From Dehalococcoidia bacterium (GTDB lineage Bacteria > Chloroflexota > Dehalococcoidia > UBA2979), in assembly GCA_965198045.1 (NCBI GenBank), contig CBDAOL010000007.1:162832-226831 (forward strand): a DNA stretch of 64,000 nucleotides, written 5' to 3'. The notes beneath the pieces are model-generated. The model ran no database searches. It was given only the letters and a program-made list of their open reading frames with translations, and had not been told where the DNA came from. The translations under genes were made by a program, and so were the position numbers. How positions within the stretch are numbered: position 1 is the stretch's first letter; every line of letters starts with the position of its first letter. This document shows, one piece after another, positions 33 to 40,114 of this stretch.

Positions 33-1169
33 ATGCGCCTGTCCTGTCAGCAAGAGGATCTCCATCGCGGGCTTTCCGCGGTGGCGCGGGCGATTCCGGC
101 CCGTTCGACGCTCCCGATCACGCAGCACGTGCTCCTCGAGGCGGCAGAGGGTTCGATCACCCTCTCAGCGACCGACGCCGAGACCATCGCCATCACCTAC
201 AAGATCCCCGCGACCGTCGAGGAGCCGGGCGCGATCACGATGCCCTCGCGGCTCCTGTCCGACTTCGTCGCCACGCTGCCGCATGAGCCGATCGAGATGG
301 TCCTGGCGGAGCGTTCGAGGCAGGTCGGTCTCTCCTGTGCACGCAACACCGCCTCGATCGGCGGCATGGACGCCGAGGACTTCCCGCCGATCCCGCCCGT
401 CGACGGGGTCGACACGATTCCGCTGGAGGCGAGCCGGCTGCGCAGCGGCATCAGCCAGACCGTGTTCTCCGCCGCCACAGACGACTCGCGACCGATCCTG
501 ACGGGGGTTCACTTCGGCATCGCCGATGGCCAGCTCCGCCTTGCCGCTGCCGACGGCTTCCGACTCTCCGTGCACACCATGGAGGTCGCGGCCGACGCCA
601 ACGATCGCGCGGTGACCGTGCCCGCGCGCGCCCTCGCCGAACTCGGGCGGCTGCTGCAGGAGGCCGAGGACGGCGCCGTGCAGCTCACGTTCAACACCGC
701 GGGCACGCAGGTGCAGTTCGATCTGGGCCACGCGAAGCTGATCGCCCAGCTGATCCAGGGCACCTTCCCCAACTACGAGCAGTTGATCCCGGAATCCTCG
801 ACGACGCGCACGGAGGTGGCGGTAGGCGAGTTCGTCCGCGAGACGCGCATCGCTTCGATCTTCGCGCGCGACGGCTCGGGCATCGTGCGGATCATCGCGA
901 CGCCGGGTGACGGCGGGCCCGGACGCCTCTCGATCATCGCCCGCGCCGACGAGGTCGGTGACAACGAGGGCGAGATCGACGCGGTGGTCGACGGCGACGA
1001 GGCACGCATCGCCTTCAATGGCCGCTACCTCAGCGAAGTGCTGGCGGTGATGGAATCCGACCGCGTCGCCATCGAGACCAGCTCCCCCTCGAGCCCCGGC
1101 GTGCTCCGCCCAGTCGGCGACGACCGCTTCGTCCACGTCGTGATGCCGATGTTCGTCCAGTGGGACTGA
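33..1169 (+). CDS. dnaN: DNA polymerase III beta sliding clamp
   Basis: 378 aa with typical beta-clamp motifs: LSATDAE, SRPILTGV, AAADGFRL, GTFPNYEQLIP, IAFNGRYL, VVMPM. Confidence 0.98.
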   Translation: MRLSCQQEDLHRGLSAVARAIPARSTLPITQHVLLEAAEGSITLSATDAETIAITYKIPATVEEPGAITMPSRLLSDFVATLPHEPIEMVLAERSRQVGLSCARNTASIGGMDAEDFPPIPPVDGVDTIPLEASRLRSGISQTVFSAATDDSRPILTGVHFGIADGQLRLAAADGFRLSVHTMEVAADANDRAVTVPARALAELGRLLQEAEDGAVQLTFNTAGTQVQFDLGHAKLIAQLIQGTFPNYEQLIPESSTTRTEVAVGEFVRETRIASIFARDGSGIVRIIATPGDGGPGRLSIIARADEVGDNEGEIDAVVDGDEARIAFNGRYLSEVLAVMESDRVAIETSSPSSPGVLRPVGDDRFVHVVMPMFVQWD

Positions 1170-1170
1170 A
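1140..1170 (+). repeat. candidate attL: dnaN 3' end GTGATGCCGATGTTCGTCCAGTGGGACTGAA
   Basis: 28/31 identical direct repeat of 40084-40114; all 3 mismatches are at synonymous third codon positions. Confidence 0.85.
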
Positions 1171-1367
1171 AAACGGATACCGTTTCGTCCTTGAACTCCC
1201 ACTGAACTGCGGAAGTACCGGCGATTCCGACAGAAGAGCTCGCAAGACGAGCAATCAGCTCCCTGCAACTGACGCTGCTCGGTGGCGGTAAGCCTCCGAG
1301 CGCAGATGACGACTTCCAATCGGCTCACGAGCGGCGCGGCAGGGCTTTCAGGGCGTGGGTTGACACC

Positions 1368-1985
1368 TTGAGAGCCGAGGCTGTCCTCGATCCAAGCGGT
1401 TGTCCGGAGCAGCTCAAGGGCCTTCTGCGATTCGAGTGGCTTGCACCGTGGGTGAGCGAACTGGTGCGTGCCCGTCAACACTCAGACTGGGAGAACGTGG
1501 GAGTCGCGTCACAGTCCATCTGGGCGGGCGTTCTCGTGCGCGTCGAGGCGCTTCCACCCGAACCCTTACAGATTCTTCGAGCCCAGCGCCTCGTTGGTGA
1601 AGACGAGCTGCCTCAGGAGACGTTCTACGAGCAGGTGTCAAAGCCGGCTGCCAGGGAGGAGATCCTGGACAGGTTTAGCCCGCACCTTCGGGCACTGCAC
1701 GAGGCAGAAGCACCCCGTCGCGGGTACAAGTTCTGGGAGCGCGCCAGCATCGCAGCGACGATGTTCCACGCCGCAATCGAGGATGCGTTGGCTGCCTCGT
1801 TCCCGAGCCGGCCCGTGGCTCTTGAGCGAGACCGTCAGATCGCCCGCGATGTCGGGATCTGGGCGTCGGTGAGGCTCGATGACCTCGAGCAAGCCGAACT
1901 CGCAGGGGCATTGGGCATTACGCCGGACGCGGTGCGAAAGGCAGTGCGTCAGACCGAGTCACTCCTCGGTCTCGATAGCGCCTAG
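1368..1985 (+). CDS. hypothetical protein with C-terminal HTH (element regulator)
   Basis: C-terminal LEQAELAGALGITPDAVRKAVRQ is HTH-like; first gene after attL; start codon uncertain. Confidence 0.6.
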   Translation: MRAEAVLDPSGCPEQLKGLLRFEWLAPWVSELVRARQHSDWENVGVASQSIWAGVLVRVEALPPEPLQILRAQRLVGEDELPQETFYEQVSKPAAREEILDRFSPHLRALHEAEAPRRGYKFWERASIAATMFHAAIEDALAASFPSRPVALERDRQIARDVGIWASVRLDDLEQAELAGALGITPDAVRKAVRQTESLLGLDSA

Positions 1986-2355: not shown

Positions 2356-3834
2356 ATGACAACTCTGCCCTTTGTCGGGCCAGCCGACCTCATTCCCGAG
2401 GCACACGGGCGTCGGGGTTCCTGCCCGATCTGCCGGCGCGAGGTCGTGATCGATGAGCAGGGACGTGCGTGCGATCGAGAGTCCTCGGGGGACCTCGTCC
2501 TTCACCCGTGCCCGATCTCAAAGCATGGGACACCGGTCCACGAACCTACCCATCAAGGATTGGTCACTAACCGCGTTTCGGTCGTCGCAGACGGTTGGCC
2601 GCAACCTTTGGACGAACACGCCTTCCACGGCCTGGCCGGTGACGTGGTGCGCGCGATCGAGCCCCAGACGGAAGCCGATCCTGCGGCCCTCCTGCTCCAA
2701 CTGCTGGCCGGCTTTGGGAATGCTGTCGGCCATCGACCGTTCATCCGCACCGAGGGAGACCGACAGACCGCGAACATCTTCGTGGTGATCGTCGGCGACA
2801 CGGCGAAGGCGAGGAAGGGGACCTCCTGGGGGCGGATTCGCCACATTCTCGGGGCGGCAGATCGCCAGTGGGTGGAGAACTGTGTCGCCTCTGGCCTGTC
2901 GACGGGCGAAGGTCTCCCCGCACGTCTCGCCCGCGATGCCGATGGTGCCGGTCGAAGCGAACACCGGCTGCTCGTGCAAGAGAGCGAGTTCGCTCGCACC
3001 CTACGAGTCATGGGCCGGGAAGGCAGCACCCTGAGTCCAATGCTTCGTCAGGCGTTCGACAGCGGGCATCTGTCAGTGCTCACCAAAACCAACCCTGTCG
3101 ACGTGCTCGACGCGCACATCTCCATCGTCGCTCACATCATCGTCGAGGAACTCCACCATCGACTTGACGACACCGAGGCCGCGAACGGCTTCGGTAACCG
3201 ATTCCTGTTCGTGGCGACGAGACGCTCCAAGTCGCTGCCGCTGGGCGGTTCCGAGATCGAGGGCCAGGCCGAGCTGGTGAAGAGGCTCCACGATGCAATC
3301 GAGGCTGGGAGGGAGCGCGAAGAAGTTCGCTTCGATCCCGCGGCCGAGGCGATGTGGATCGATGTCTACGAGGAGCTGAGCCGGGGCGAGCGCGGGCTAG
3401 TTGGCGGGATCACGGCGCGGTCGGAGGCACTGGTGATCCGTCTGGCGTTGCTCTACGCGCTCCTCGACGGCGACGACGCGATTCGGAAGGATCATCTCGC
3501 CGCCGCGCTCGCCGCCTGGGACTACTGCTATGCATCCACACGCCACATCTTCGGGAACCAGGTGGGCGACCCTATCGCGGATCGCATCCTCCGGGAGCTG
3601 CTGGTCGCACCAGACGGCCTGAGCCGAACAGTTATCAGGGATCTACTGGCGCGCAACAAGCGCGCCGCGCAGGTCGACGCCGCTCTTGAGTTGTTGCGGG
3701 CGCTCGGTGTGGCTCGGATGGAGAGCCAGCGGACCGGCGGTCGGCCCCGCGAGGTCTGGTTTGCAACGACCGGGGCGAGCAGCACGACCGATACGACGAA
3801 TACGACTGAACTGCTGGGCGGTGGTGCAGCTTGA
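2356..3834 (+). CDS. DUF3987/YfjI-like P-loop helicase-like replication protein with N-terminal Cys motif and C-terminal winged helix
   Basis: HGLAGDVVRAIEPQTEADPAA; Walker-A-like IVGDTAKARKGTS; GLSTGEGL; LLVQESEF; GFGNRFLF; TGGRPREVW. Confidence 0.85.
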   Translation: MTTLPFVGPADLIPEAHGRRGSCPICRREVVIDEQGRACDRESSGDLVLHPCPISKHGTPVHEPTHQGLVTNRVSVVADGWPQPLDEHAFHGLAGDVVRAIEPQTEADPAALLLQLLAGFGNAVGHRPFIRTEGDRQTANIFVVIVGDTAKARKGTSWGRIRHILGAADRQWVENCVASGLSTGEGLPARLARDADGAGRSEHRLLVQESEFARTLRVMGREGSTLSPMLRQAFDSGHLSVLTKTNPVDVLDAHISIVAHIIVEELHHRLDDTEAANGFGNRFLFVATRRSKSLPLGGSEIEGQAELVKRLHDAIEAGREREEVRFDPAAEAMWIDVYEELSRGERGLVGGITARSEALVIRLALLYALLDGDDAIRKDHLAAALAAWDYCYASTRHIFGNQVGDPIADRILRELLVAPDGLSRTVIRDLLARNKRAAQVDAALELLRALGVARMESQRTGGRPREVWFATTGASSTTDTTNTTELLGGGAA

Positions 3835-4160
3835 CGAGATCGTTCCTCAGGGTTGCCTTAGAGGCTCAGCTCGCCCGTGCCTTCCGAGATGGTTGCGAAG
3901 AGCACAAGGTGGCTGGACAGGAAGTAGCCGACCGCTGGCAGGTGGTCGCCAAGCGCGATCTCGAAGCCGACTGCTGTCCCTGCTGTGCCGGCCCGTGCGC
4001 TCGTGTTGCGGTCGTATGCAGAGCCTGTGGCCCACTAGTTGCCTCTCTGTTCGAGTCGCTGACCGCGGCACGCCCGTGCGTGCTGTGCGGCGGCTCGGCG
4101 GACTGCATGCAGAGCCAGGACTGGGTATGTCGGGCGTGCTTTGCGTCGAAGTCGCCCTAG
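3831..4160 (+). CDS. Cys-rich putative zinc-binding protein
   Basis: Multiple CxxC motifs (CPCC, CRAC, CVLC, CRAC); overlaps the upstream stop codon. Confidence 0.55.
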   Translation: MTRSFLRVALEAQLARAFRDGCEEHKVAGQEVADRWQVVAKRDLEADCCPCCAGPCARVAVVCRACGPLVASLFESLTAARPCVLCGGSADCMQSQDWVCRACFASKSP

Positions 4161-4439: not shown

Positions 4440-4901
4440 TCACTCGTCTAGCGCAAAGAGGCGCTGGCGCGCTTCAACGGTGTCGATACGAGAACGGAAC
4501 CAGTCCTCGTATATAGCAAGCACCTCGTCTTTCTGGTTGCCGGTCATATACCTCCGGACATCATCGAGAGTGGTCAGGGTTGAGCCGGGGGGAGCGTAGA
4601 AGTTGAAGTAGGTCCGACCGTCGCACTTAGTCTCGTACCGGAAGTCAGACTCTTCGTCGGCGGGATCGGAAAGAGCCGGGAGCGTTCTGGCCTGCGAAGT
4701 CCGGATCTGGACGCGCTCGCGACCGCAGACCTCGGCGAGAAAGGTGCCCGGACCGCCCTCTTGATCGCACGCGACTGTCTCATCGCAGGTAAGGGTGATT
4801 GCATTCGAGGCGAAGAACGGTGAGACCCATCCAAACCAGACGATAGCCCCTACAAAGAGAACACCCACCGCCAAGCCTGCACTATCCTTGAGACGCATCA
4901 C
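4440..4901 (-). CDS. hypothetical exported/membrane-anchored protein
   Basis: N-terminal hydrophobic helix followed by a Cys-containing soluble domain. Confidence 0.6.
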   Translation of the reverse strand: MMRLKDSAGLAVGVLFVGAIVWFGWVSPFFASNAITLTCDETVACDQEGGPGTFLAEVCGRERVQIRTSQARTLPALSDPADEESDFRYETKCDGRTYFNFYAPPGSTLTTLDDVRRYMTGNQKDEVLAIYEDWFRSRIDTVEARQRLFALDE

Positions 4902-5352
4902 GGCGTTGGCTCCGATCGCTCGACAGCGGATCTTCTTCTCCGCCGTCCCACAGGACCGCTGCTATCTGCACTCGATCCCAAGCGATCGCTGCTCGTCGGG
5001 ATCGGCTGCAACAGTCGTCACTCAGGCGCACAGCTCGGACGCTATTCCTGTCGCCTCGACGAGGACTTCTTCCGCGAGCATGCGCCGAACGCCAGCGTGA
5101 CTCGGACGGCCCACTCTTTCCGCACTTGGCACCACGGTGGGACAGCCCGGAGTCGTCATGCGCGGACATTAGCTGACCCATCGGACGGACGTTGGACGGG
5201 CCTCACGTCTACTCTCTTCGAACCACGAGAGATGTTCAGGTCGCGTCTCAAAGGGGCACCTCGACTGGAACTGGGGTCTCCTCGAAACGCACCTGACGCG
5301 GCAGGCGCGGCGCGATAGCGTTGGGCGCTGGCCTTCACAGGCCGAGTTCGAC

Positions 5353-5748
5353 GTGCTCCGACAACACGAGGCGTGGGCGCTTGTTGTCCTGGGGTCGCCT
5401 CGGCAGCGGACAGCCTACGACCTTAGAGAGTTCGGTCGCGAACGTCTGATTCAGGCCGCCTCCGCCGGGACTGCGCCAAATCAACTCTGGCTGATCGCTT
5501 GGGCGGCACTCGTTATTGCCCTGGTCAGTGGCGGGTTCGAGCTGCCTACGGCCGTACGTGTGGCGCTGACGGTGATCGCTGTGGGCGTCGCGATGGCTGG
5601 GTACGTAGCGGCGAGGCTGTGGGTCGGGAAAATCGTCGCGGCGTTCCGCTTCCGAGGTCGCTCGGACACGCCGGCAACTGTGCTCGCTTACCTGCTTATG
5701 CTCGCCCCGCCCGCGGTTCTCGCAACGGTCCTTGCGAGCCTAAGCTGA
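5353..5748 (+). CDS. hypothetical protein with about 3 transmembrane segments
   Basis: Three hydrophobic stretches. Confidence 0.55.
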   Translation: MLRQHEAWALVVLGSPRQRTAYDLREFGRERLIQAASAGTAPNQLWLIAWAALVIALVSGGFELPTAVRVALTVIAVGVAMAGYVAARLWVGKIVAAFRFRGRSDTPATVLAYLLMLAPPAVLATVLASLS

Positions 5749-5822
5749 CACGCAGCCCAGAGCCGTCCATCGCAGGCGAGGTGGCCGTCGAAGAGTAGGC
5801 CAGGAGCCCCACCCATCGGAGG

Positions 5823-6407
5823 TTGCCGTTGGCTGACAGAACTGACGCCGAAGCGATCGCGCAGGGATGGCGAACTCTCTGGCTCTACGAAGCGGTGGCC
5901 AGAAACCGATCTCGATTTGAGGGCGAGCTCCTTCGACCGCAACCGCGTAACTCGCTGGTCGATGGCCTGCTAGCGTCATTGCTCTTCTTACAGATGACGA
6001 GCGTCGTTGAGGCTGCGCTGCCCGTGATCCGCGAGATGCACGACCTACCTGCGCCCCAAAGAGACACTCTTCGTGAAAACGTCGAAGCCCTACGCGAGGA
6101 GCTTGTCGACCCGAGTGCGCTTCATCAAGTCCTCGATCGGAGGGTTGAGATCGCCCACCGCGGAGTGAGGGCGGCCTGGGAAGAGCTCGCCTCCGCGGCC
6201 GATGTCGTGGAAGCGGAACTCGTAGCGCAGCGACTCGTCGCGGGCAGACCGAAGTTCGATGCGCACGCGGAGAGATCGGGGGCGATGCCTTGCGACGATC
6301 CTGAGGTGCTTTCAGTATTCGAGCACCGGCGATGGCTGACAGACTCGAACGGACGAACGGCACTCGAACAGACGTGGCAGGAGAAGCTGATGAGAGACGG
6401 CTTCTAG
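5823..6407 (+). CDS. HEPN-like helical protein
   Basis: Helical composition; LLFLQMTSVVEAAL helix and R-x4-H motif (DRRVEIAH). Confidence 0.5.
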   Translation: MPLADRTDAEAIAQGWRTLWLYEAVARNRSRFEGELLRPQPRNSLVDGLLASLLFLQMTSVVEAALPVIREMHDLPAPQRDTLRENVEALREELVDPSALHQVLDRRVEIAHRGVRAAWEELASAADVVEAELVAQRLVAGRPKFDAHAERSGAMPCDDPEVLSVFEHRRWLTDSNGRTALEQTWQEKLMRDGF

Positions 6408-6454
6408 CACCGTTCCCAACCACCGCAAGACCGGCCGCCCCGGCTCGCCGTGCA

Positions 6455-6495
6455 ACGCTCGCAGACGCCCTGAGCGGCCCGTACGCGCGCGCGAC
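6455..6495 (+). repeat. intergenic repeat copy 1 (ACGCTCGCAGACGCCCTGAGCGGCCCGTACGCGCGCGCGAC)
   Basis: 39/41 identical to 8213-8253; shorter core again at about 11062-11082. Confidence 0.8.
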
Positions 6496-6824
6496 TCGGC
6501 GTCGTGCGCCCACCTCGCAGCGAGCACGGATGCCTATTATTCGCGAGAAGGAGCGCTGATGCCGCTTGGCTGCTCCGGCAGCATCGGCGCGGGATCGGCG
6601 CCGCCGCGATGGGTTGTGGTGACCTCTCCGACGATGCGATGATCGAATCGGCGGCGCGGGGTGAGATGTCTTCCGCTGTGGCGCTCCCCGTCTTCCCGGA
6701 TTCGTCAGATCGTCTGCGGCCCTCGACCGACGAGGCTCCCGATTCACCGAGTTCCGCTCGTGTCTCATCGCACCGCGACCGTGTGCGCCCTCGAGATGAC
6801 CCCCTCGACTTCGATATTCGAGGC

Positions 6825-6947
6825 ATGGACCGCCACAGCGCGCACATTGACCCGCTCGCGCCCGCGCGGGGCATCCTGATCGGGGCGACCCTCAGCGCGG
6901 CCGCATGGGCCGTTCTCATCGCGGTCGTGCTCCCCATCCTCCGTTAG
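6825..6947 (+). CDS. small single-pass membrane peptide
   Basis: MDRHSAHIDPLAPARGILIGATLSAAAWAVLIAVVLPILR, preceded by GAGG. Confidence 0.45.
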   Translation: MDRHSAHIDPLAPARGILIGATLSAAAWAVLIAVVLPILR

Positions 6948-6991
6948 CCATCAGCGCGAAGGCTCGGCGTCGAACGAATCACTCACGTCGG

Positions 6992-8068
6992 TCAGACGAG
7001 CTCTGAGTCGCCCATGCTGAGGTGAATCCGGGCCTGCCGATCTTCCGTGATGGGGCGCACGAAATCGGGCTCGGGAGCCGCCGTTCGCAAGGCGGTGCGC
7101 CACGCTGCGTTCCGTGAGCGGCGCCCCAGACGGACGAAGCCCGCGTCGCGAATCGCCGCGCTATATGGGTGGTGCTCGACGTTGCTGTACTCGAGTGAGG
7201 ATGCTCCGCCGGCGCGTGCCTCCTCCACGCAATGGTCAAGCAGGGCTCGCGCGATGTCTGGGCGACCGGGCCGGGCGAGCAGATCCGCCACGACGCCGCG
7301 TCGACCTCGGACGGTGAACGCTGCGTACCCGAGCAACTCACCGTTCTCCTCGGCGGCAAAGAGCTCGAAGAAACCACCGCGACGATCGAGGTAGCGCCAG
7401 TTCAGATAGTCCGCTGATCGGCTTAGGATCAGGTCGAACTCCTCAGCCGCCTCTCTCTACAGCGCGTCGAACCGCTCATCGCACCTCTCGATCGAGACGA
7501 CCGTCGCGCCGGTAGGCGGCGCACCGCGAAGTGCGATCCGCCCCCTGATCCCGAGCAGTGCGTAGCCTGGCAGGGTCGCGAGGTGCCAGCGATGGCGGCG
7601 CGCCTCATCGAGGGGATGGAGAATCCGCGCATACACGGTCCAGCGGTTGGCGAATCGCGCGTAGTTCTCGGTGCCATCCGCGCGGAACCGATGGATAGCA
7701 GGAACCTGCGAGAAGCCCAGTCCGATGTCGGACAGATGGCGGTCAAAGTAACGGAGCTCGCCGTAGAACCCACGACCGCGGGCGAGGGGGTGCATGGCCG
7801 CGAATGGACCGTTGAGAAAGGTCAACTCGCGCCCGCGGATCAATGCGGGTCGGAGCTGGGCCGTTGATGCGCCGACAATCTTGCCGTCAAGATCGGAGAC
7901 AGCCGGCCGGCAGACCACGCCCTCGCCCAGCGTCATCCACTCCACGAAGGTGAGTGCTCCGCCCTCGTTCGGCCAGGGAGGGAAGCGGTCGAACGAAAGC
8001 TTAAACGTCTCGGTGATCCCGCGCAGATCCTCTGGCGTGGCGAAACGTACCGTCGGCCTCTCGCTCAT
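6992..8068 (-). pseudogene. GNAT family N-acetyltransferase (two-domain) with in-frame TAG
   Basis: MHPLARGRGFY acetyl-CoA motif; ORFs 7457-8095 and 6992-7336 share a frame across RFDAL*REAAEEFDLILSRSADYLNWRY. Confidence 0.75.
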
Positions 8069-8212
8069 CGACGACCACACGCTTCCATCCAACACCCTGG
8101 ACTTCGCCCGGGTGTGCGCACTGGCGTCCGGGCCATCTGCTCCTTATGGATCATGGCTCGCCCTAGTATCGCTGTTGCGCGTCCCAAACGACCGCCGGCT
8201 GGCCGCCGTCCC

Positions 8213-11225: not shown

Positions 11226-11490
11226 GTGACCGGGACTGAACTCATTCTCCACTACGACGGAGTCGAAGCGGCCCGCTACATCGACGACCCAGATGAGTTC
11301 GTCCGCGTCTGCCCAGAATGCAGTCACGTCAACTCGGTCTCGCGACCAGCGTCGCCCGATGCCTCCATCCTGAACGAAGTGTCGGCCTGCGTCGTTTGCG
11401 CAACCGAGATTGGCAGCGGCGAACTTGTATACCTGGCACGCACCGCCCGCGCTCCGATTCCGTTCGGGCCAAATCGACTGGGGACGGTAG
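11226..11490 (+). CDS. hypothetical protein with two CxxC motifs, running into the IS end
   Basis: CPEC and CVVC; the reading frame continues into the IS inverted repeat. Confidence 0.4.
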
Positions 11491-11519
11491 TGACCGGACC
11501 CCCTTTGCGAGACCACCGC

Positions 11520-12344
11520 TTATGAGAGTCCAGCGTGTTGCTGAGCCTCCCAGCGCTCGGCGTAGGTAGCCGGGGCGAGCCAGCCCAGGCTGCTGTGCGG
11601 GCGCTTCGTGTTGTACTCGATCCGCCAGTCCTCGATCAGCACCTGCGCCTCGAGCAGGCTGTCGAACTGCTCGACGGCCAGGAACTCGTCGCGCAGCCGG
11701 CCGTTGAACGACTCGACGAATGGGTTTTCCCACGGCGCACCGGGCTCGATGTAGCTGCTGCCCGTACCGCTGAACCGGCACCAGTCGCGCAGCGCGTTGG
11801 CCGTGAGCTCGGGCCCGTTGTCGCAGCGGATGTACCCCGGCGCCGTCCCGCGCCCGGCGACGATCCGGTCGAGCGTGGCGGCGGTGGCGTCGGCGTTGAT
11901 GCGCCTGGCGGCCACCACCGCCAGCGCCTCCCGCGTGTGCTCGTCGACGATGTTGAGCAGCTTCAGGACCCGCCCGTCCGCGGTCTGGTCGAACTGGAAG
12001 TCCAGCGCCCAGACGTGGTTCGGCCGCTCAGCACTCAGCCGCCTGGCGGGCTGAGCCGAGTCCCCCAGACGCTGACGCTTGCGTCGTGTCAGCGGGACGC
12101 GCAGCCCCTCCTCACGCCAGAGCCGTTGCACCCGCTTGCGGTTCACGGTCCATCCCTCCTCGCGCAAGGTCGCCCATGCGCGGCGGTATCCCCAGCGGGG
12201 GTGGCCACGCGAGAAGGCGTGCAACTCCGTCCTGAGCGCGTCGTCGCCGCGGCCGCGCGCCGGCAGGCGGCGCTGCGTGGAGCGGTGCTGGCCGGTGACC
12301 CGGCATGCCCGCCGTTCCGACAACTCGAGGCGGTCCTGCAACAT
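11520..12344 (-). CDS. IS3 transposase OrfB (DDE)
   Basis: WALDF, DNGPE, ESFNGRLRDE, RPHSSLG. Confidence 0.95.
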   Translation of the reverse strand: MLQDRLELSERRACRVTGQHRSTQRRLPARGRGDDALRTELHAFSRGHPRWGYRRAWATLREEGWTVNRKRVQRLWREEGLRVPLTRRKRQRLGDSAQPARRLSAERPNHVWALDFQFDQTADGRVLKLLNIVDEHTREALAVVAARRINADATAATLDRIVAGRGTAPGYIRCDNGPELTANALRDWCRFSGTGSSYIEPGAPWENPFVESFNGRLRDEFLAVEQFDSLLEAQVLIEDWRIEYNTKRPHSSLGWLAPATYAERWEAQQHAGLS

Positions 12345-12373
12345 GCAGACCGCCTCGCGCCGGCGCGACGGGC

Positions 12374-12652: not shown

Positions 12653-12730
12653 CGTGATGTCCTCCTCCGCCCACCTTCGCGGGCCAAAGGACTCTCATCA
12701 ACGGTGGTCTCGTCTCACGGGGTCAGGTCA

Positions 12731-25469: not shown

Positions 25470-25473
<4 letters not shown>

Positions 25474-29568: not shown

Positions 29569-30951
29569 GTGACGCTACCTGTTGAATCGCTGCCACGCCG
29601 GGTGCGCCAGCTCTACGCGGTCGGCAGCACGGCCGGCAGTGCGATCACTCAGACCTGGGCTCTCTGGCTCATCTACTTCTACGCCCCGCCATCTGACGAG
29701 ACATCAATCGCGCTGCGGGTGCCCGAGGTGGGCGGTCTTGACGCTCGCGTGGTGCTCGGGCTGGTCCTCACGCTGGCGCGGTTGATCGAAGCCCTCGATG
29801 ACCCGTTGCTCGGGTACTGGACCGATCGTGCACGCACACGGTGGGGCCGCCGCATCCCGTTCGTGCTCTTCGGGACGCCGTTTTGGTGCCTGACCTTCGT
29901 GCTGCTGTTCCTGCCACCCGTCGCCGGGGCCTCAAGCGTCAATCTCGCCTTCCTCTTCATCACAGCGGTGGCGTTCTTCCTCACAAGCAACATCGCCGGC
30001 GCGCCGATCGAGGCGCTCCTGCCGCACCTCGCCCGGACCAACGACGACCGTGTGGCGGTGGCCACGTTGCAGGTGATCTTCGGCGTGATCGGCGCGGCGA
30101 TCGGGCTCTCGCTCAGCGCGCTGCTGGTCCAGCTTGTGGGCTTCGCCGGGATGGTGATCGCGATCGCCGCCATCGCGCTGGCGACGCGCTACGTCTCCCT
30201 CGGTGGCGTCTGGCGTCACGCGCTGCGCGACAACACGCCATCGGAGCCGGGCTTCTGGAAGGCGGTGACCGGCACGTTCCGCAATGCGCACTTCATCGCC
30301 TTCCTCCCGAGCTTCGTCTGCTTCCAGGTCGGCGCGCAGTTGCTCGTCGCGATGCTCCCGTTCTACGTGGGCACGATACTGCCAGAGGTCGAGGTGCTCG
30401 GCTTTAAGGGCGCGGATGACGAGGGCATCTTCACGTTCCTGCTGACTGCGGTCATCATCGCCTCGATGCTGGCGGCTGTGCCGTTCTTTGCAGCCGCTGC
30501 CAGGCGATACGGGAAGGCGACGGCGTACCGCTTCGCGATGCTCGGCTCGGCGGCCGCCTTCCCGCTGTTCGCTTTCGCGGGGTCGCTACCGCTACTGCCT
30601 CCGCTTGGGCAGGCGATCGTTGCCGTGATGGTGGCCGGGGCGCCGACCGCTGGCGTCTTCCTCTTCCCAGGCATCATTACGGCAGATATCACCGATGACG
30701 ATGCCGGGAACACGGGATCGCAGCGCGCCGGGATGTTCTACGGCGCGCAAAACCTCGTCGAGAAGCTCGCGTCCTCGGTGACGCCGTTGCTGTTCGCGCT
30801 ACTGCTGCTCGCGGGGGACTCGGCGTCCGACCCGCTCGGCGTCCGCCTCGTTGGCCCGGCGGCGGGGCTCTTCGTGCTCCTCGGCTACCTCTCGTTCCGC
30901 CGCTACCGGCTCGAAGTCGCAGGGGAACGGAGCCGCGCACCGACGAGCTGA
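29569..30951 (+). CDS. MFS_2/GPH-family symporter
   Basis: DDPLLGYWTDRARTRWGRRIPF; about 12 TM. Confidence 0.92.
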   Translation: MTLPVESLPRRVRQLYAVGSTAGSAITQTWALWLIYFYAPPSDETSIALRVPEVGGLDARVVLGLVLTLARLIEALDDPLLGYWTDRARTRWGRRIPFVLFGTPFWCLTFVLLFLPPVAGASSVNLAFLFITAVAFFLTSNIAGAPIEALLPHLARTNDDRVAVATLQVIFGVIGAAIGLSLSALLVQLVGFAGMVIAIAAIALATRYVSLGGVWRHALRDNTPSEPGFWKAVTGTFRNAHFIAFLPSFVCFQVGAQLLVAMLPFYVGTILPEVEVLGFKGADDEGIFTFLLTAVIIASMLAAVPFFAAAARRYGKATAYRFAMLGSAAAFPLFAFAGSLPLLPPLGQAIVAVMVAGAPTAGVFLFPGIITADITDDDAGNTGSQRAGMFYGAQNLVEKLASSVTPLLFALLLLAGDSASDPLGVRLVGPAAGLFVLLGYLSFRRYRLEVAGERSRAPTS

Positions 30952-31992: not shown

Positions 31993-32928
31993 CTAGCTGA
32001 CGTGCAGCACGGCCTTGCCGCTGATCTGGCGGTCGAGCAAGCGCCCCGCGACCTCGGCGACATCGGTCCACGGCGCCTCGTGATCGATCTTCGGGACGAC
32101 TGACCCCTCGGCGACCATCTCGGCCAGCCGAGCGAGGCCCTCGGACGCCGGCTGCTCGCGGATCTCGCGGAAGAGGGTGAAGCGGTAGAACTGCGCAGCG
32201 CCCGCAGCGAGGTGCTCGCGCGCGTTGAACGCGAACTCGGCGCCGGAGGAAACGCCGTAGAGCACGCACATGCCACCCGGTGCGAGCACCGTGAGTGCCA
32301 TCGAAAGCGTGTCGCCCCCCACCCCTTCGAGCACGAGGTCGTACGGACCGTGAAGGGCTGCGGCCTCCCGGTCCGCGCCGACGACAATCTCCGCAGCGCC
32401 CGCTTCGCGCGCGTCCGCACCGCGCTCGGGTCGACGAACAACGCCCACGACATGCGCGCCCGCGTTGCGGGCGAGCTGGCATGCGAAGTGGCCGACGCCA
32501 CCATTCGCGCCGGTGATCAGAACGCGGCGTCCGAGGATCGAGCCGTTGCGGTCCAGCCCATACATCGCCGTCAGACCGGCCACCGGGAGCGTCGACGCCT
32601 GAGCGAACGAGACGGAGTCAGGCATTACGGCGAGCGCATCGGTCGGCACGGCCACAAGCTCCGCCCAGGCTCCGGAAGGCACGAAACCGACCACAGGATC
32701 GCCCGCGGCTGGACCGCTCGCATCCGAGGCAGGTGCCTCGACCGTGCCGGCGAGGTCCCAGCCTGGCCGCCAGCCGTCGGGGGCCATCTGCGTTCGCCGC
32801 GTCTCGCCCAGGTTTAGTGAGAAGGACGAGACGCGAATCAGGGCCTCGCTGGGCGTGCGTACTGGCTCGGAGGCATCGGCAATCACGAGGCGCCGCTTGG
32901 CGCTGGAATCGACTACCACACTGCGCAT
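31993..32928 (-). CDS. MDR-family NADPH quinone oxidoreductase-like dehydrogenase
   Basis: GWDLAGTV, LPVAGLTA, VLITGANGGVG, GKAVL. Confidence 0.93.
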   Translation of the reverse strand: MRSVVVDSSAKRRLVIADASEPVRTPSEALIRVSSFSLNLGETRRTQMAPDGWRPGWDLAGTVEAPASDASGPAAGDPVVGFVPSGAWAELVAVPTDALAVMPDSVSFAQASTLPVAGLTAMYGLDRNGSILGRRVLITGANGGVGHFACQLARNAGAHVVGVVRRPERGADAREAGAAEIVVGADREAAALHGPYDLVLEGVGGDTLSMALTVLAPGGMCVLYGVSSGAEFAFNAREHLAAGAAQFYRFTLFREIREQPASEGLARLAEMVAEGSVVPKIDHEAPWTDVAEVAGRLLDRQISGKAVLHVS

Positions 32929-32986
32929 GATGACCTCAGGGTGCTGACTTCGAGCATCGAAGCGCGCGCGCGCCGGCGGGCACCGG

Positions 32987-33323
32987 CTACGACGCGTGCT
33001 GCGCGACGATCGCTTCCGCCTCGTTCGTGACGGTGGGTAGCGCCGCCTGAAACGCCTCCTCATCGAGCGACGCCGCGACCGTCGCGTACCCCGCTCGCTC
33101 GATCATGGGCCTCAGGCGGCCCCGCTCGAAGCGTTCCAGCGCCCAGGCGAGCGGATCGCCTGCCGCGGTCACGTCCAGCATCAAGCGCTCGTTATTCTGC
33201 TCCGGCCCGTAGTGGTAATGGGGTGCGTTGGCGAAGCAGTCGAAGCGCAACAGTTCAGTGTCCCGCCCGTCCACTTCCGCATAAACCTGGATGCAGAGCC
33301 CCGCGTCGCCCGGGATGTCGTTT
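32987..33323 (-). pseudogene. hypothetical protein, 5' truncated at the IS remnant
   Basis: ELLRFDCFANAPHYHYGP motif; frame runs into the IS IR. Confidence 0.6.
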
Positions 33324-33329
33324 CGGTAG

Positions 33330-33600
33330 TGACCGGACCCCCTTTGCGAGACCACCGCTTATGAGAGTCCAGCGTGTTGCTGAGCCTCCCAGCGCTCGGC
33401 GTAGGTAGCCGGGGCGAGCCAGCCCAGGCTGCTGTGCGGGCGCTTCGTGTTGTACTCGATCCGCCAGTCCTCGATCAGCACCTGCGCCTCGAGCAGGCTG
33501 TCGAACTGCTCGACGGCCAGGAACTCGTCGCGCAGCCGGCCGTTGAACGACTCGACGAATGGGTTTTTCCACGGCGCACCGGGCTCGATGTAGCTGCTGC
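33330..33600 (-). mobile_element. partial copy (one end) of the IS3 element at 11491-12730
   Basis: Near-identical to 11491-11761. Confidence 0.95.
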
Positions 33601-33874
33601 ATAGCGCACTCGAGAGCGAGGGGTCTGCAAAGCCAGTGGCCTCCGTACCGTCGCCTTCCGCAAGTCGGTAGGAGCCGTCACTTGCGAGTTCAAGGATCGT
33701 CGAGCAGCCACCGTACGGACACAACCCCCCCGCGCCACTCGACGCTGACCATTGGGACAGCCGGAGTCGACTCTTCATCGGAGCAAGCCGCCAGCGCGAG
33801 CACGAGCAAGGTCAAGACGTACAGTACAGCCCTCATTCAGGTGGAACGAGTGGCAGGCCCCACAACCCCGGCCT

Positions 33875-33985: not shown

Positions 33986-34217
33986 AGCGATCCGCTCGCG
34001 GGGTGCTCCAGCTGTGGCGCGATCGTCCTGCCGCTGACCCCGCTGGGTGATACTGCCGGGAGTAATGGTGCCTTATCGCTGACTCGAGACACGAGCCCGA
34101 CGATGCGCACCTGCGGTAGTCAAGGCTGGATGCCCTCGCTACGTGAAAGCGACCGATCCAGCCATTGGTTCGCAGTGGGCGGGTGTCCACTCCGCGGTGA
34201 AATGTGGAGCGCGAAGC

Positions 34218-34931
34218 ATGACTAGCGAGCGGCAGCGAAGAGCCGACGATCTCGGTCTGTTCCTCTTCGACATCGGGGGCACGGTCCTCGATGAAGGCGG
34301 CCTTGTCTTGAGCGCTTACGTGTCAGTGATCGAGAAAGCTGGTCTGAGAGCAGACCCCGAATGGTTCGGCACGCGCAGGGGTATGAACAAGACTGCAATG
34401 CTTCGCGAAGCCCTCGAGGCACAGGGCGGGGACCCGAGACGCGCACCGGAGCTCGCGGCTGAGTTCGCGGTCTTCATCGACCACGAGCTCGAGACGCACC
34501 CGGTTTCGGCGTTTCCGGGGTTCGATGCACTCGAGCGCGGCCTTACTGAGCACGATGTGCAAGTCGGGTTCATCACCGGCTTCGCAGGTCGGACTGCCCG
34601 TGCGATCGTCGACCGTATGGGCTGGCACGCAGATGCGATCGTCGGCTCCGACGAGGTGGCGGAGGGTCGTCCGGCACCGGACTTGATTTACGAGGCGATG
34701 CAGCGCACCGGTGTGAGCGATGCGCGGCGCGTCGGCGTCTGCGGTGACACTCCCTTCGACATCGACTCGGGCCGTGCCGCTGGCTGCGGTCTCGTCGTGG
34801 CGATCGGGCATGGCACGCACGACGCCGCGGAACTGGCGGTACACGAACCTGATCTCGTCGTCGCCGATTTCACCGAGCTCGCGAGGCGGCTCGGGCTCTC
34901 GGGGCCGACGGAGACACCCACTGACCGCTGA
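34218..34931 (+). CDS. HAD-superfamily phosphatase (phosphonatase-like)
   Basis: LFDIGGTV, ITG, GRPAPDLI, GDTPFDI. Confidence 0.9.
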   Translation: MTSERQRRADDLGLFLFDIGGTVLDEGGLVLSAYVSVIEKAGLRADPEWFGTRRGMNKTAMLREALEAQGGDPRRAPELAAEFAVFIDHELETHPVSAFPGFDALERGLTEHDVQVGFITGFAGRTARAIVDRMGWHADAIVGSDEVAEGRPAPDLIYEAMQRTGVSDARRVGVCGDTPFDIDSGRAAGCGLVVAIGHGTHDAAELAVHEPDLVVADFTELARRLGLSGPTETPTDR

Positions 34932-36585: not shown

Positions 36586-36768
36586 ATGGAGCGAATGATG
36601 GTGACCCTCAGCGATGACGAGTACGAGACGCTCCGTCGGCTCGCATACGAACGACGAGTGTCGATGACGCGACTCGTACGCGACGCGATCGACGAGAAGT
36701 ACGGCACCAGCGGTGAGGAGATCGGACCACCCGGACGTCGCCCACAGACAGAAGCGGAGGCGACCTGA
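36586..36768 (+). CDS. ribbon-helix-helix (CopG-like) DNA-binding protein
   Basis: MERMMVTLSDDEYETLRRLAYERRVSMTRLVRDAID; TGATG coupling to the recombinase. Confidence 0.85.
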   Translation: MERMMVTLSDDEYETLRRLAYERRVSMTRLVRDAIDEKYGTSGEEIGPPGRRPQTEAEAT

Positions 36769-37675
36769 TGCGCTGCGTGATCTATTCGCGCGTCTCCACC
36801 GACGCGCAGGAGCGCGAAGGCACCTCCCTCGATACGCAAGAGGGTGCCTGCATCGAGTACGTCGGTAAGCAGGGTTGGACCGTGGTCGAGACGCTCCGCG
36901 ACACAGCGAGTGGGTTCAGCCTCGACCGCCCCGGTATGGAGCGGGTGCGCTCGCTGGCGGCCTTGGGGCGCATCGACGTGGTGCTTGCGCATGCCCTCGA
37001 CCGCCTCAGCCGCAAGCAGACACACGTCGCCATCCTCGTCGAGGAGATGGAGGACCGGGGCGTCGCTTTGGACTTCGTCACGGAGGACTTTGAGGACACG
37101 GCGGTGGGGCAGCTCGTTCGCTCCGTCAAGGCGTTCGCCGCCGAGTTCGAGCGAGAGAAAATCGTCGAGCGAACGATGCGCGGGAAGCGCGAGCGAGCGC
37201 GTTCGGGACGGCTGCCTCAAGGTACCGGGGCGGGGTTGTACGGGTACCGCTACGATCCGGCGACTGGGCGCCGCGAGTTCGACCCCGTGGAGGCTCCGGT
37301 GGTCCCCCGTATCTACGAGCGGTTCCTCGCGACAAGGAGCATCGCGCGGGTCTCGACAGAGCTGAACGAGGACGGGATCGCCACGAAGCAGGACGCTCGC
37401 TGGCACCAGCTCACCGTGCGCCGCGTCCTGCTGAACGAGTCATACACCGGACGCACTCGCCACTGCGTCAACGGCGACCCACCGATCGAGATCCCCGATG
37501 CAACGCCACGGTTGATCGATGACGACACCTGGAACCGTGCCCAGTTGATCCTGCAGGACAAGACCCGTCACGGCGCGCGGAGGTCCATACGCCACTACGC
37601 GCTGGCCCGGCGCGTCCGTTGCAGGCATTGCAGCTCGGCGATGCTGGGCCAGACCACGCGGAGCCGCGGCAAGTT
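36768..37675 (+). CDS. large serine recombinase, N-terminal part (catalytic + recombinase domains + start of Zn ribbon), truncated
   Basis: YSRVSTDAQ, DRPGM, DRLSR, AEFEREKIVER, YGYRYD, CRHCSSAM. Confidence 0.92.
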
Positions 37676-37764
37676 CGCGCAGCCCCTTCGACTCCGGACG
37701 GGCGTGGCAGCTGTGCAAGGACGGAGAGTGCCGATGCGATGGTGCTCACGTTCCGATTCTACGA

Positions 37765-39090
37765 TCAGGGCGTTTCGTAATCGCGGAAGCCGCGTGCGAA
37801 GACGAAGAGCGCCAGGGCGGTGCAGAAGCAGATCACGCCGAAGACGATCTGCGCGACCTGGACGCCTTGCCACGCCGCGAGCAGCCCGCCGGCTGCCGCT
37901 CCCGCCATGCTCATGGCGCGGTCGAGCGACATCAGGCTGACGACGCGGCCGCGCATCTCTTCGGGCGCTGCCGTCAGCAGCGTCGAGTTCGACAGCGACA
38001 TGTACGAGGTCTGCATCGCACCGGCTGCCATCACGAAGACGAACGGGAGGAGCAGGCCGGCCGGGTGAGGCAGGTAGGTGCTGAGCGAGAACAGCACGAG
38101 CACGATCCCCATGCCCATCGTTACGGCCGGCAGCCACAGGCCCGTCCGTCGAGGCATCACAGTGGCGATCAGCAGCGTCATCAGCAGGGCGCCAATGCCA
38201 CTGAAGCTGAGCAGCAGCCCGAAGCCCGTGCCACCGGTGTCGAGCACCGTCCGCGCGAACAGCGGCGCGAAGACCTGCATCCACGACTGGCCGAACGCGA
38301 AGTAGACGACCGAGAGCAGCAGCACGCCTCGGATCGCCGGTTGGCTGGCCGCGTAGCGCATGCCTTCGACGAGGCTTGCGCCCATCGCGCGGAACGTTCG
38401 CTCGCCCTCGCCGCCGCGTTCCGGTGTCTTGACCGAGAGCAGGGCGGTCGAGAGCACCGCGCCGGAGTAGATGACCGTGATGATCACGAAGGTCATGTCG
38501 ACCCCGACCCAGTCGAGAACGAACCCGGCGCTCGCCGCGCCGACGATGCGCATCGTGTTCTGCGTCGCGCTCATCAGCGCCACAGCGTTGGTGACCAAGT
38601 GCCGCGGCACGGACGCAGCGACCAGCGGTTGCCGTGCCGGCTGGTCGAAGGCCATGAAGAAGCCTCTGGCGAACGAGAACGCGTAGACGTGCCAGAGCTC
38701 GATGTTGCCGCTGAGCAGCAGCGCCGCGAAGAGGAAGTTCAGTGCCAGCACACCGCTCTTGGTCGCGAGCAGCACGCGTTTGCGGTCGAACCGGTCGGCG
38801 ATCACGCCGGCCCAGACGCCGAACAGCAGCATCGGCACGGTCCTCGTCGCCACGACGCCGCCGACGTGGGCGGCGCTGTCGTTGGTCAGTTCGAGGACCA
38901 GCCAGGGGGCGGCGATCTGCTCCATCCAGAGTGCGCCGGCGTGGCTCGCCTGGCCGAGCCAGAGCAGCCGGTAGTTGGGGAAGCGCAGCGAGGAGAACGT
39001 CGAGTAGCGGCCAGAAGGCGGCTGTTCGGTGTGCTCAGGGGCGTCCGAGTGGACATCGGGCGGACGCCGCGGGGGACTGGTCGTCGCCAC
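37765..39090 (-). CDS. MFS transporter
   Basis: AGVIADRFDRKR, FDQPARQ, EMRGRVVS. Confidence 0.93.
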   Translation of the reverse strand: MATTSPPRRPPDVHSDAPEHTEQPPSGRYSTFSSLRFPNYRLLWLGQASHAGALWMEQIAAPWLVLELTNDSAAHVGGVVATRTVPMLLFGVWAGVIADRFDRKRVLLATKSGVLALNFLFAALLLSGNIELWHVYAFSFARGFFMAFDQPARQPLVAASVPRHLVTNAVALMSATQNTMRIVGAASAGFVLDWVGVDMTFVIITVIYSGAVLSTALLSVKTPERGGEGERTFRAMGASLVEGMRYAASQPAIRGVLLLSVVYFAFGQSWMQVFAPLFARTVLDTGGTGFGLLLSFSGIGALLMTLLIATVMPRRTGLWLPAVTMGMGIVLVLFSLSTYLPHPAGLLLPFVFVMAAGAMQTSYMSLSNSTLLTAAPEEMRGRVVSLMSLDRAMSMAGAAAGGLLAAWQGVQVAQIVFGVICFCTALALFVFARGFRDYETP

Positions 39091-39190
39091 GCAGCTCCCC
39101 GCTCAGATTCGTCGCCTGCCGAGGCCCGATGTTATGTCTGAGCACTATCTCCGGCAAGCGAGGCCGCCTCGATGTCGTTGGCGAGGCTGC

Positions 39191-39409
39191 ATGAGTCGGA
39201 CCACGGCATTTTGGATAGGGATTGCGCTGCTCGCGGCGGTCCCCGTTGGTGGGGTGGTTGCCGCCCTCGCTCTGATCGCTAGTCAAACGTTGGGCGCACT
39301 CGCCTGGCTCGTAGCGAGCCTGGCCGCGCTCGTGTTGGCGGTTCGCCTGATTGCCCCTGGGCGTCCGGAACGCACACCCGTGGCAGCGAGCGCACGCCAT
39401 CCTGATTGA
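39191..39409 (+). CDS. small 2-TM membrane protein
   Basis: MSRTTAFWIGIALLAAVPVGG...; its 3' end overlaps the recombinase fragment. Confidence 0.5.
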   Translation: MSRTTAFWIGIALLAAVPVGGVVAALALIASQTLGALAWLVASLAALVLAVRLIAPGRPERTPVAASARHPD

Positions 39410-40114
39410 CCCGGACCGGCACGGCGCTCGTGCCGCCAAGCGGCATTACGCCCTCACGCGCCGCGTGCGCTGCGGGCACTGTCGTTCCGCGATGGTCGGT
39501 CAGACGACGCACAGCCGGGGTCGCGAGTACCAGTACTACCGCTGCCGCCACGTCTACACATCCACGACCGGCGGCTCATGCGAGGGCCGTTACGTTCGCG
39601 CCGACGGGCTTGAGGAGGGTGTCTGGGACGCGATCGAGGAGGTCGTATCCCGCCCTGAGATCGTGACGCGCGAACTAGCTCTCGCGGCGGAGCGCGAACG
39701 CGAAGAAGGCGGCTCGCAGTCGGACCTCGTCGCGGAGCTTGAAGATCTAACGGCTCGCGAGCGCCGTCTCGTCCGCCTGCTCGGTGGTGTCGACGACGAC
39801 GTTGTGCGGGACGAACTCCAGACGACCGCCGCCCGCCGTGCTCACGTGCAGGCGGAACTCGATCGAGGGGCTGTGCCTGCGCTCGCCGACCTCATGATCA
39901 GCGACCTCGACGAGGTTTCCGCGCTGGTCAAGAGTTGGCTCGCCGACGCCTCGGATGACGACCGTATGCTGCTCCTCGAGGCGCTCCAGATCGAGGCACG
40001 GCGACGCGCGATGAGGCGACCGTCCACGGCGTGATCCCGACCGGCATCGAACACGACCATGACGAGGTTGCGAGAGGCGAGCAGTCATGCCGATGTTTGT
40101 GCAGTGGGACTGAA
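39380..40114 (+). pseudogene. large serine recombinase C-terminal part (Zn ribbon, coiled coil), apparent 1-nt frameshift near 39997
   Basis: CGHCRSAM, YQYYRC, CEGRYVRADGLEEGVW, LLEALQI; continues as ATRDEATVHGVIP...EQSCRC across the att copy. Confidence 0.88.
40084..40114 (+). repeat. candidate attR: second copy of the dnaN 3' end GTCATGCCGATGTTTGTGCAGTGGGACTGAA
   Basis: Encodes VMPMFVQWD*, identical to the DnaN C-terminus. Confidence 0.88.

Follow-up and report, generated by a model that had tools for sequence, protein, structure and literature searches.

Why the last codons of an essential gene should occur twice on one contig is the question raised by a 64,000-nt stretch of a Dehalococcoidia bacterium of the lineage UBA2979 (assembly GCA_965198045.1, contig CBDAOL010000007.1, positions 162,832 to 226,831), referred to below as the window. 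The sliding-clamp gene dnaN lies near its left end, and the terminal codons of this gene recur beyond a 38.9-kb interval. An original prediction, made from the letters of the window, had read this interval as a satellite-like element that integrates into the dnaN 3′ end and brings a substitute for it. We find that the interval 1170-40084 is very likely a genomic island inserted into the end of dnaN by a large serine recombinase (LSR), a member of a wider family that has decayed in this genome, and not a phage or satellite. The insertion into dnaN and the replacement end were upheld, as the tails keep the DnaN sense and a same-genus genome is without the island; the satellite part was not.

The direct repeat comprises positions 1140-1170 (GTGATGCCGATGTTCGTCCAGTGGGACTGAA) and 40084-40114, which agree at 28 of 31 bases, and the three mismatches (GTG/GTC, TTC/TTT and GTC/GTG) fall on third codon positions throughout. 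Both copies encode VMPMFVQWD followed by a stop in the dnaN frame, the last nine codons and stop of the gene occupying 1140-1169 and recurring at 40084-40113, just as a dnaN-tail repeat with three synonymous changes had been proposed. The similarity is confined to these 31 bases, neither flank being alike. A search of the window that allowed up to three mismatches returned these two sites only, two repeat matches were obtained in 0 of 100 dinucleotide-preserving shuffles, and the degenerate coding pattern of the tail occurred at only these two sites in the 3.45-Mb assembly.

We compared the locus with the same-genus genome G001 (the assembly holding the window is designated G000 and its contig C7). 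The dnaN gene of G001 has 95% DNA identity to window positions 1-1169, and window positions 40117-41396 are 94.7% identical to G001 DNA that starts 745 bp past the G001 dnaN stop. The 38.9 kb between the repeats are absent from the corresponding G001 site, and the edges of the G000-specific DNA coincide with the repeat edges, homology to the G001 flank starting at 40117. As the island is lacking at the G001 site, the 38.9 kb are an insertion bounded by the dnaN-tail repeats.

The same association was observed across the class. With residues 1-480 of the intact G001 recombinase as query, 152 of 401 class genomes gave a match at E <=1e-30, many of these being distant LSRs. At 27 of the best 30 loci the tail pattern occurred 11-73 bp past the 3′ end of the recombinase match, and all 27 tails had 0 mismatches to the degenerate pattern with 2 allowed. 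The other three loci were one where the contig ends 33 bp after the gene (L027), one with no tail (L048) and the truncated fragment of G000 itself (L052). Two layouts were distinguished. In type B (23 loci) the recombinase lies beside dnaN and is convergent with the tail, and in type A (4 loci; the layout of G000 and G001) it lies at the far end and is co-directional with dnaN. The type B tails included 20 genuine dnaN ends, 2 lone copies and 1 tail at a contig end, while all four type A tails were lone copies; genuine dnaN ends were judged by the conserved upstream peptide and some also by whole-ORF (open reading frame) matches. The window dnaN was 51-73% identical to the dnaN ORFs adjoining tails in seven other genomes. 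Among further loci, which included other classes, a tail stood beside the recombinase at 5 of 8. Homologs of the recombinase convergent with dnaN were also seen in the Dehalogenimonas-like genomes G136, G305 and G316.

Searching complete or large assemblies by pattern, we obtained direct tail pairs spaced by 14.3 kb (G194), 16.2 kb (G003), 38.1 kb (G230), 41.1 kb (G015), 42.0 kb (G344), 44.0 kb (G006), 66.0 kb (G296) and 87.1 kb (G253), so that in the relatives, as in the window, the 3′ end of the target gene is directly repeated at the two island borders. Three tails separated by 21.1 and 32.8 kb were present in G372 and eight tails in G343, and tandem arrays were found in G372, G343, G253 and G194. 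In G343, a complete genome from another family, four tails form a direct array over 98 kb beside dnaN (C1, 829657-927707), and four more, two of them inverted, lie elsewhere (C1, 1273431-1693446). Overall, the tail pattern was present at least once in 339 of the 401 class genomes and at least twice in 49, about one in eight by hand count, and the reversed-pattern control gave zero in every genome listed. The 339 include one genome flagged as unpublished, G259, with one tail.

Close recombinase homologs were also found in three genomes of the same phylum outside the class. In G628 a genuine dnaN end ...YLHVIMPMHVAR-stop (...IMPMHVAR-stop) faces a convergent recombinase and a second recombinase stands beside a lone copy of the IMPMHVAR tail, and in G719 the lone tail IMPMQVSGGR-stop is co-directional. 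In other classes the att sequence follows the host's own DnaN C-terminus, as expected if the element rebuilds the end. A named Chloroflexota metagenome-assembled genome encodes a recombinase that is 50% identical. In a maximum-likelihood tree with Bacillota outgroups the dnaN-linked recombinases formed one clade (92/92, 98/99). Type A recombinases fell in two well-supported groups, for which two label changes were inferred and one is not excluded, and sequences of host family f16 were nested within those of f1, an arrangement that speaks for transfer across host families. These patterns indicate a serine-recombinase family linked to dnaN tails across Dehalococcoidia and other Chloroflexota. 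Both the association of recombinase homologs with a dnaN-tail copy, which the original prediction had named as a check, and its idea of a family targeting the sliding-clamp gene are thereby borne out by the 27 of 30 loci and by the tail pairs in complete genomes.

That the repeat is no attachment site at all, and arose by chance, as a duplication artefact, or as the footprint of a tyrosine integrase or a transposon target duplication, is extremely improbable. The shuffles speak against it, as do the coincidence of the insertion boundaries relative to G001 with the repeat edges (window 1169 and 40117) and the presence of the same tail beside recombinase homologs at nine tenths of the best loci. 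For the integrase variant, tyrosine integrase matches numbered 29 in G000, and none of them was on the window contig C7. Taken with the family pattern, the repeat reads as a genuine pair of attachment-site cores.

The recombinase of the window itself is broken. A large serine recombinase had been predicted at the second repeat, and a recombinase does adjoin it, but as two fragments with an MFS gene between them and not as an intact gene. Fragment 1 carries the N-terminal domain set of LSRs, Resolvase and then Recombinase, together with the YSRVSTDAQE block that is common to all family members and which we take to be the site of the catalytic serine. Its homology to the relatives stops near 37745, and the remainder of the ORF is the antisense of the MFS gene. 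Fragment 2 lies 1.4 kb further downstream and ends 50 bp upstream of the right repeat. No polypeptide of the window joins the zinc ribbon and coiled coil to the N-terminal domains; the 565-aa ORF of G001 has all parts. Directly upstream of fragment 1, the ribbon-helix-helix (RHH) protein is 87% and 72% identical to the ORFs upstream of the G001 and G344 recombinases, respectively.

The two fragments are of unequal relatedness to the G001 recombinase, with identities of 64-65% for fragment 1 and 40-43% for fragment 2. The stretch RHGAR..RHYAL.RRVRC.HC.SAM.GQTT.SRG occurs in both, a content overlap of ~50 residues (~150 nt), over which a three-way DNA alignment with G001 gave 67% mean column identity and the G000 fragments stood at ~70% by eye estimate. 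As the fragments overlap and yet have diverged, they represent two different recombinase genes and not one gene split by an insertion. Fragment 2 also departs from the C-terminal pattern of the family (LLxALQI...G-V/I-x-P) after LQIEA, with GVIP lying in another frame. The excision pictured in the original prediction is thus unlikely at present.

Matching sequence was present in eight public runs from four studies, all as contigs, and the assembled contigs of four of them (X1, X3, X5 and X8), from three studies, were compared with the window; X3 is the closest, and the best-matching run may be the source sample of the assembly. The split recombinase arrangement was present in contigs of all four runs and hence did not arise as an artefact when this record was assembled. 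X1, X5 and X8 have an additional base behind 39996 that is absent from X3 and that, counting positions, brings GVIP into frame. The right junction is bridged by contigs of X3, X5 and X8. One joint from inside the right repeat, 40107 to 40690, was seen in X3 and X8; its shorter side has 21 letters, and as a short-sided joint it was not counted as an excision or empty-site product. Several further joints, one side of which was as short as 19-32 letters, were set aside as likely repeats.

No intact close recombinase homolog was found elsewhere in G000, where other LSR matches were 28-39% identical over parts of the query. We conclude from these sequences that the island is without a working cognate recombinase, and, as no intact close homolog is present in the assembly, it is probably immobile, a loss of mobility that we infer from the state of its genes. 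The island copy is a decayed fossil, with a chimeric recombinase and two IS3 copies and an IS3 fragment inside. It is unlikely that the island still moves by means of a recombinase supplied in trans, either from the unassembled tenth of the genome or from a co-resident element, in the way of the integrase-less, cis-mobilisable islands at ssrA. Both window tails are intact and keep the full tail pattern, the assembly is 90% complete, and islands without a recombinase do exist in arrays, as in the first G372 element, which has no recombinase match; the same route is proposed for the ssrA islands in the available text of McMurdie et al. (2011; PMC3146451). Against these stand the remoteness of the other LSRs in G000 and the lack, among the matches listed for the contigs of the four runs, of any loose end or joint counted as excision at 40084-40114, contigs being blind to rare events.

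The chimeric recombinase also bears on the number of insertions behind the 38.9 kb. We give even weight to a refinement of the decayed-island reading in which at least two tandem islands have left their remains in the interval, joined through deletion and through rearrangement mediated by insertion sequences (IS). The overlapping, diverged fragments from different genes and their unequal identity to the G001 enzyme fit such an origin, tandem arrays are common among the relatives, and the IS3 end at 11485-11761 is repeated at 33324-33600 (277 bp, 99.6% identical, 21.8 kb apart), so that the IS3 fragment shares this stretch with a full copy. On the other side, no internal tail remnant was found inside the island with five mismatches to the tail pattern allowed, and the order of N-terminal part, MFS gene and C-terminal part cannot be produced by a single deletion, at least two events being needed.

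The anatomy of the sites suggests how the exchange might proceed. Lone copies of the tail always keep the seven codons MPMFVQW and a stop, which follows directly or after D, S or A; ahead of M the codon differs among copies (V, S, stop, F, L or M). In type B, the lone copies are preceded by a conserved TGAACA, which with TGTTC of the tail forms GAACA-N10-TGTTC around GTGATGCCGA, an inverted repeat in the type B P arms; type A lone copies are preceded by CGCACMG. The left tail of G000 (1141-1172) is identical at 32 of 32 positions to a lone G001 tail and is followed by a similar arm (AAAACG...GAACTCCC). That G001 tail has a type B P arm before it, which makes it an internal junction of an array. 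The right tail of G000 shares its wobble bases with the two tails that follow the G001 recombinase. The recombinase ORFs extend into the tail, those of type A running through it in a second frame (..DAHVRAVV..) and those of type B stopping on its antisense strand (..ATIGQTSA-stop), so that the att core lies in the 3′ end of the recombinase gene. The tails beside type B recombinases mostly have TTT/GTT/CAA wobble bases that follow the recombinase clades, with G006 and G408 as misfits in this informal comparison.

In the mechanism that we propose, the LSR would have inserted the island 1170-40084 into the last codons of dnaN, the element bearing in its attP a dnaN end of its own, the final 8-9 codons and stop. 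After exchange between attB and attP, dnaN would end in element-derived DNA (the left repeat, 1140-1170), and the displaced original end would be left as a lone copy at the far side (40084-40114). The varying codon before ATG, the GAACA-N10-TGTTC repeat in the P arms and the identity of the G000 left tail to a lone G001 tail suggest a crossover near the 5′ edge of the repeat, in which case essentially the whole dnaN-proximal tail would be element DNA. Both this course of recombination and the element-derived identity of one tail we infer from the patterns above.

Variation among tails is restricted to wobble positions across the family, as would follow if each tail is, was, or after excision would be the end of an essential gene. 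The selection on both copies suggested in the original prediction agrees with this wobble-only variation, but the same would be seen if each lone copy had arisen recently from a functional end. Most genomes have a DnaN ending in W, while the ending is WS in G253, G015, G317 and G364 (L045, L046, L039 and L050) and WD in G000 and G001, and one lone copy in G015 reads WA, so an element-linked tail can differ by one C-terminal residue. On contig C2 of G001, three extra tails lie away from dnaN (811687), at 945117 (+), 996851 (-) and 1019677 (-), corresponding to loci L015, L018 and L070. One of these lies after the intact recombinase of 565 aa, two form the inner ends of a perfect inverted repeat of 313 bp with 51.7 kb between them, and in the third a type B P arm is joined to a type A P′ arm. 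Together they look like a relocated or rearranged island array.

What kind of element this is can be judged from its content and from that of its relatives. ORFs of the window were chosen with a crude caller based on GC content at third codon positions (GC3), and the family searches in Pfam and PHROGs cover the ORFs so picked; the features are collected in the table. The interval holds mostly cargo, namely the EAL protein, the cyclase-hydrolase fusions, three MFS transporters, the CoA-transferase, the alcohol dehydrogenase and the HAD hydrolase, besides the IS3 elements; a DUF4389 protein is encoded between the CoA-transferase and the second IS3 element in gene order. The adjacent paralogous hydrolase-cyclase fusions, near the EAL protein and MFS transporters, form a small signalling cluster as cargo. 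The predicted DUF3987 and RHH genes were both recovered by Pfam. Of a predicted helix-turn-helix (HTH) gene only a sub-threshold match remained, and the ORF called a zinc finger is indeed rich in cysteine but matched no family in Pfam.

Features of the dnaN island and its borders in the window (positions as in the window)
Feature	Position	Strand	Basis or remark
dnaN, 378 aa	33-1169	+	ORF; last nine codons and stop within left repeat
Left repeat, attL core, present dnaN terminus	1140-1170	+	putatively element-derived
ORF with weak HTH-like match	1368-1985	+	Sigma70_r4_2 E 0.0097, below curated cut-off
DUF3987 protein, primase/helicase-like, candidate replication module	2356-3834	+	Pfam E 5.4e-13; PHROG DNA primase/helicase E ~7e-7
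Cys-rich small ORF (CCPCC, CRAC, CVLC, CRAC)	3831-4160	+	no family match in Pfam
EAL-domain protein, cargo	9411-10859	+	Pfam EAL E 1.3e-66
IS3-family IS (OrfA 12374-12652, OrfB 11520-12344)	11485-12660	-	HTH_Tnp_1, rve, rve_3
Two alpha/beta-hydrolase and nucleotide cyclase fusion genes, cargo	13964-16584	+	Guanylate_cyc and Abhydrolase matches
MFS transporter, cargo	16656-18221	+	MFS_1 E 2.7e-34
CoA-transferase family III, cargo	21208-22488	+	E 6.1e-85
IS3-family IS	24551-25840	-	99.5-99.6% identical to two G001 copies
MFS_2 sugar-type transporter, cargo	29569-30951	+	E 4.8e-43
Zinc-type alcohol dehydrogenase, cargo	31993-33063	-	family match
IS3 fragment, C-terminal part of transposase only	33324-33778	-	rve_3
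HAD hydrolase, cargo	34143-34931	+	family match
RHH protein directly upstream of recombinase	36586-36768	+	RHH_1 E 1.3e-5
Serine recombinase fragment 1	36768-37940	+	Resolvase E 1.3e-32, Recombinase E 1.6e-17
MFS_3 transporter between recombinase fragments	37765-39090	-	E 1.2e-38; GC3 0.90; contigs of all four runs have it
Serine recombinase fragment 2, zinc ribbon and coiled-coil part, 227 aa	39351-40034	+	Zn_ribbon_recom E 4.2e-13
Right repeat, attR core	40084-40114	+	putative displaced original dnaN end
Sulfatase-like gene, chromosomal flank, convergent with dnaN	40130-41443	-	94.7% identical to G001 DNA

Comparison with 11 other island regions showed that only the recombinase is shared, along with the RHH protein in the type A modules of G000, G001 and G344. 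The 14.3-kb island of G194 has genes for Type ISP restriction-modification and for a primase-like Toprim/zinc-ribbon protein of 863 aa, the 16.2-kb island of G003 encodes Phd, Replic_Relax, AbiEi/AbiEii, two IS1595 copies, Z1 with DUF4420 and an NYN protein, and the island of G015 encodes a Replic_Relax protein. As only the integration module is shared and the cargo is varied, the elements behave like integrative islands and not like phages or satellites, and we regard them as integrative, possibly mobilisable cargo or defence islands.

The original prediction had instead pictured a satellite of the phage-inducible chromosomal island (PICI) type with a divergent terminase small subunit (TerS). 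Such a satellite would hijack a helper phage for its transfer, and we consider this quite unlikely for the window island. Among the island ORFs tested, none matched TerS, a capsid, a portal or another phage structural family in Pfam or PHROGs. The minus-strand ORFs divergent from the DUF3987 run gave nothing in Pfam or PHROGs (4443-4901, 4885-5181, 5743-6768 and 7460-8095) or nothing in Pfam, where these alone were searched (6407-6937 and 6982-7377), and 10 further unexplained island ORFs gave no meaningful PHROG match. The ORF 4443-4901, the likeliest TerS candidate, starts hydrophobic, and the Atlas gave no usable hit for it. PICIs are compact, about 10-20 kb, and the interval of 38.9 kb consists mainly of metabolic, signalling and transporter genes with IS elements; the two annotated related islands, those of G194 and G003, carry the restriction, abortive-infection, toxin-antitoxin and replication-type genes named above and no phage genes. 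In favour of a satellite one may cite the DUF3987 primase/helicase-like gene with the RHH regulator, a replication module that is not specific to satellites, the small size of some relatives (14.3 and 16.2 kb) and, in the available part of the report, a PICI-type island integrated next to dnaN in Streptococcus pneumoniae (10.1101/2025.03.18.643841).

Certain points weigh against the reading of the interval as an LSR-inserted island. The HTH-like ORF and the DUF3987 gene had no homologs in the 11 other island regions, so that a single-element origin of the left and right ends is not shown. The G001 site lacks the 38.9 kb, but it is not cleanly empty: a HAD hydrolase gene, convergent with dnaN, fills the 745 bp that separate dnaN from the shared flank, for which one further small insertion or deletion must be assumed, and the comparison of the site is with one same-genus genome. 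(This gene was also considered as a relative of the HAD gene of the island and rejected, the two being unrelated on comparison.) The island does not stand out in GC content, with 0.63-0.68 inside and 0.65-0.71 outside. No excised circle, same-strain empty site or recombination product was observed in the assembled contigs, which cannot show rare events. The crossover position is drawn from sequence patterns alone, and an intact recombinase could sit in the part missing from the 90% complete assembly.

The window island itself is an ordinary decayed genomic island, and it is the family behind it that matters, an LSR clade whose attachment site would be the last 8-9 codons of the essential sliding-clamp gene. 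Extra dnaN tails provide a simple marker for delimiting horizontally acquired DNA in Dehalococcoidia and their relatives, in parallel with the ssrA islands that spread dehalogenase genes; reductive-dehalogenase matches numbered 19-30 in same-class genomes of 1.4-1.9 Mb and none in G000. The recombinases may also be of value as tools, being natural serine integrases whose target is long, conserved and predictable. The C-terminal residues of the clamp are needed for partner binding, which, if it holds here, would explain the faithful copy of the tail in the element. The family-level pattern is worth a short systematic study.

A bolder view, which we hold to be doubtful, is that the dnaN-tail islands form an active, phylum-wide integration platform of the Chloroflexota in which the terminal residues of the beta clamp are set by the element instead of the host. 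The tail termini observed are W, WS, WD and WA, with MHVAR and MQVSGGR in other classes. Were it true, the gain, loss and exchange of islands would change the protein-binding C-terminal region of the clamp or be policed through it, and imprecise loss of an island would be lethal, a built-in addiction. The overlap of recombinase and attP would then give different recombinase C-termini in the integrated and excised states, a possible directionality switch.

Two further repeats were noted to the right of the island flank. Window positions 41790-42500 (711 bp) are 100% identical to positions 150709-151419 of G000 contig C5 and 87% identical to a third site on C12. Positions 51520-52886 (~1.37 kb, with a 357-aa ORF) match four copies in an 80-kb stretch of G001 at 98.3-98.7% identity and are probably another insertion sequence common to both species.

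In the literature searched, with supplements and subscription journals outside its reach, we found no description of dnaN-targeting serine-recombinase islands, dnaN is not mentioned in a 2026 Dehalogenimonas pangenome paper, and the family is apparently undescribed. Its closest analogues appear to be SCCmec and the ssrA-specific islands of Dehalococcoides. SCCmec and related cassettes use the serine recombinases CcrAB or CcrC at the 3′ end of rlmH/orfX, where short direct repeats keep the ORF whole. They resemble the dnaN islands in their LSRs, in the use of the 3′ end of a conserved gene, in variable cargo and in tandem or composite arrays. They differ in the target, which is another gene and not known to be essential, in usually having CcrA together with CcrB, and in their Bacillota hosts, whereas the dnaN islands have a single LSR gene that overlaps the att core. 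This comparison was made in part through the available text on the ssrA islands (PMC3146451).

According to that text, the ssrA islands carry the integrase DsiB, a serine recombinase of ~540 aa encoded on the reverse strand beside attL, and show the end of ssrA as a direct repeat of 20 bp, arrays in tandem within 100 kb and variable cargo; some are without an integration module, and the authors read them as integrative mobilisable elements (McMurdie et al. 2011; PMC3146451). From this account they share with the dnaN islands the host class, an LSR by attL as in type B, and the repeated 3′ end of a single-copy essential gene. They differ in that the target is the tmRNA gene ssrA and not a protein-coding end, and in a module with the small serine recombinase DsiA and RecF-, ParB- and Mom-like genes, none of which were seen here. 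Genomes of the Dehalococcoides type match the query recombinase at only E 1e-31 to 1e-37, which makes theirs a distant relative at best.

Other systems share single features. PRCI_dnaN of Streptococcus pneumoniae is a phage-related chromosomal island at dnaN for which excision and circles were followed by attB/attL/attP assays (10.1101/2025.03.18.643841, available part). Compared by description, it has its attachment site at dnaN as the dnaN-tail islands do, and it differs as a PICI-type satellite in Bacillota whose source, in that part, names int and not a serine recombinase or a replacement of dnaN codons. The dusA-specific integrases are tyrosine integrases. As far as the accessible text goes, they use one protein-coding target across many bacteria, in prophages and islands with varied cargo, and differ from the present family in that dusA is entered at its 5′ end (Farrugia et al. 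2015; PMC4482086). Integrases of the Bxb1/phiC31 type have the same set of Resolvase, Recombinase and Zn_ribbon_recom domains. Phage LSRs of this kind integrate unidirectionally by attP x attB exchange, and their sites share few central bases. In contrast, 27-31 bp are shared at the dnaN islands, which carry no phage genes, and this length would be explained by the need of the element to rebuild a coding end.

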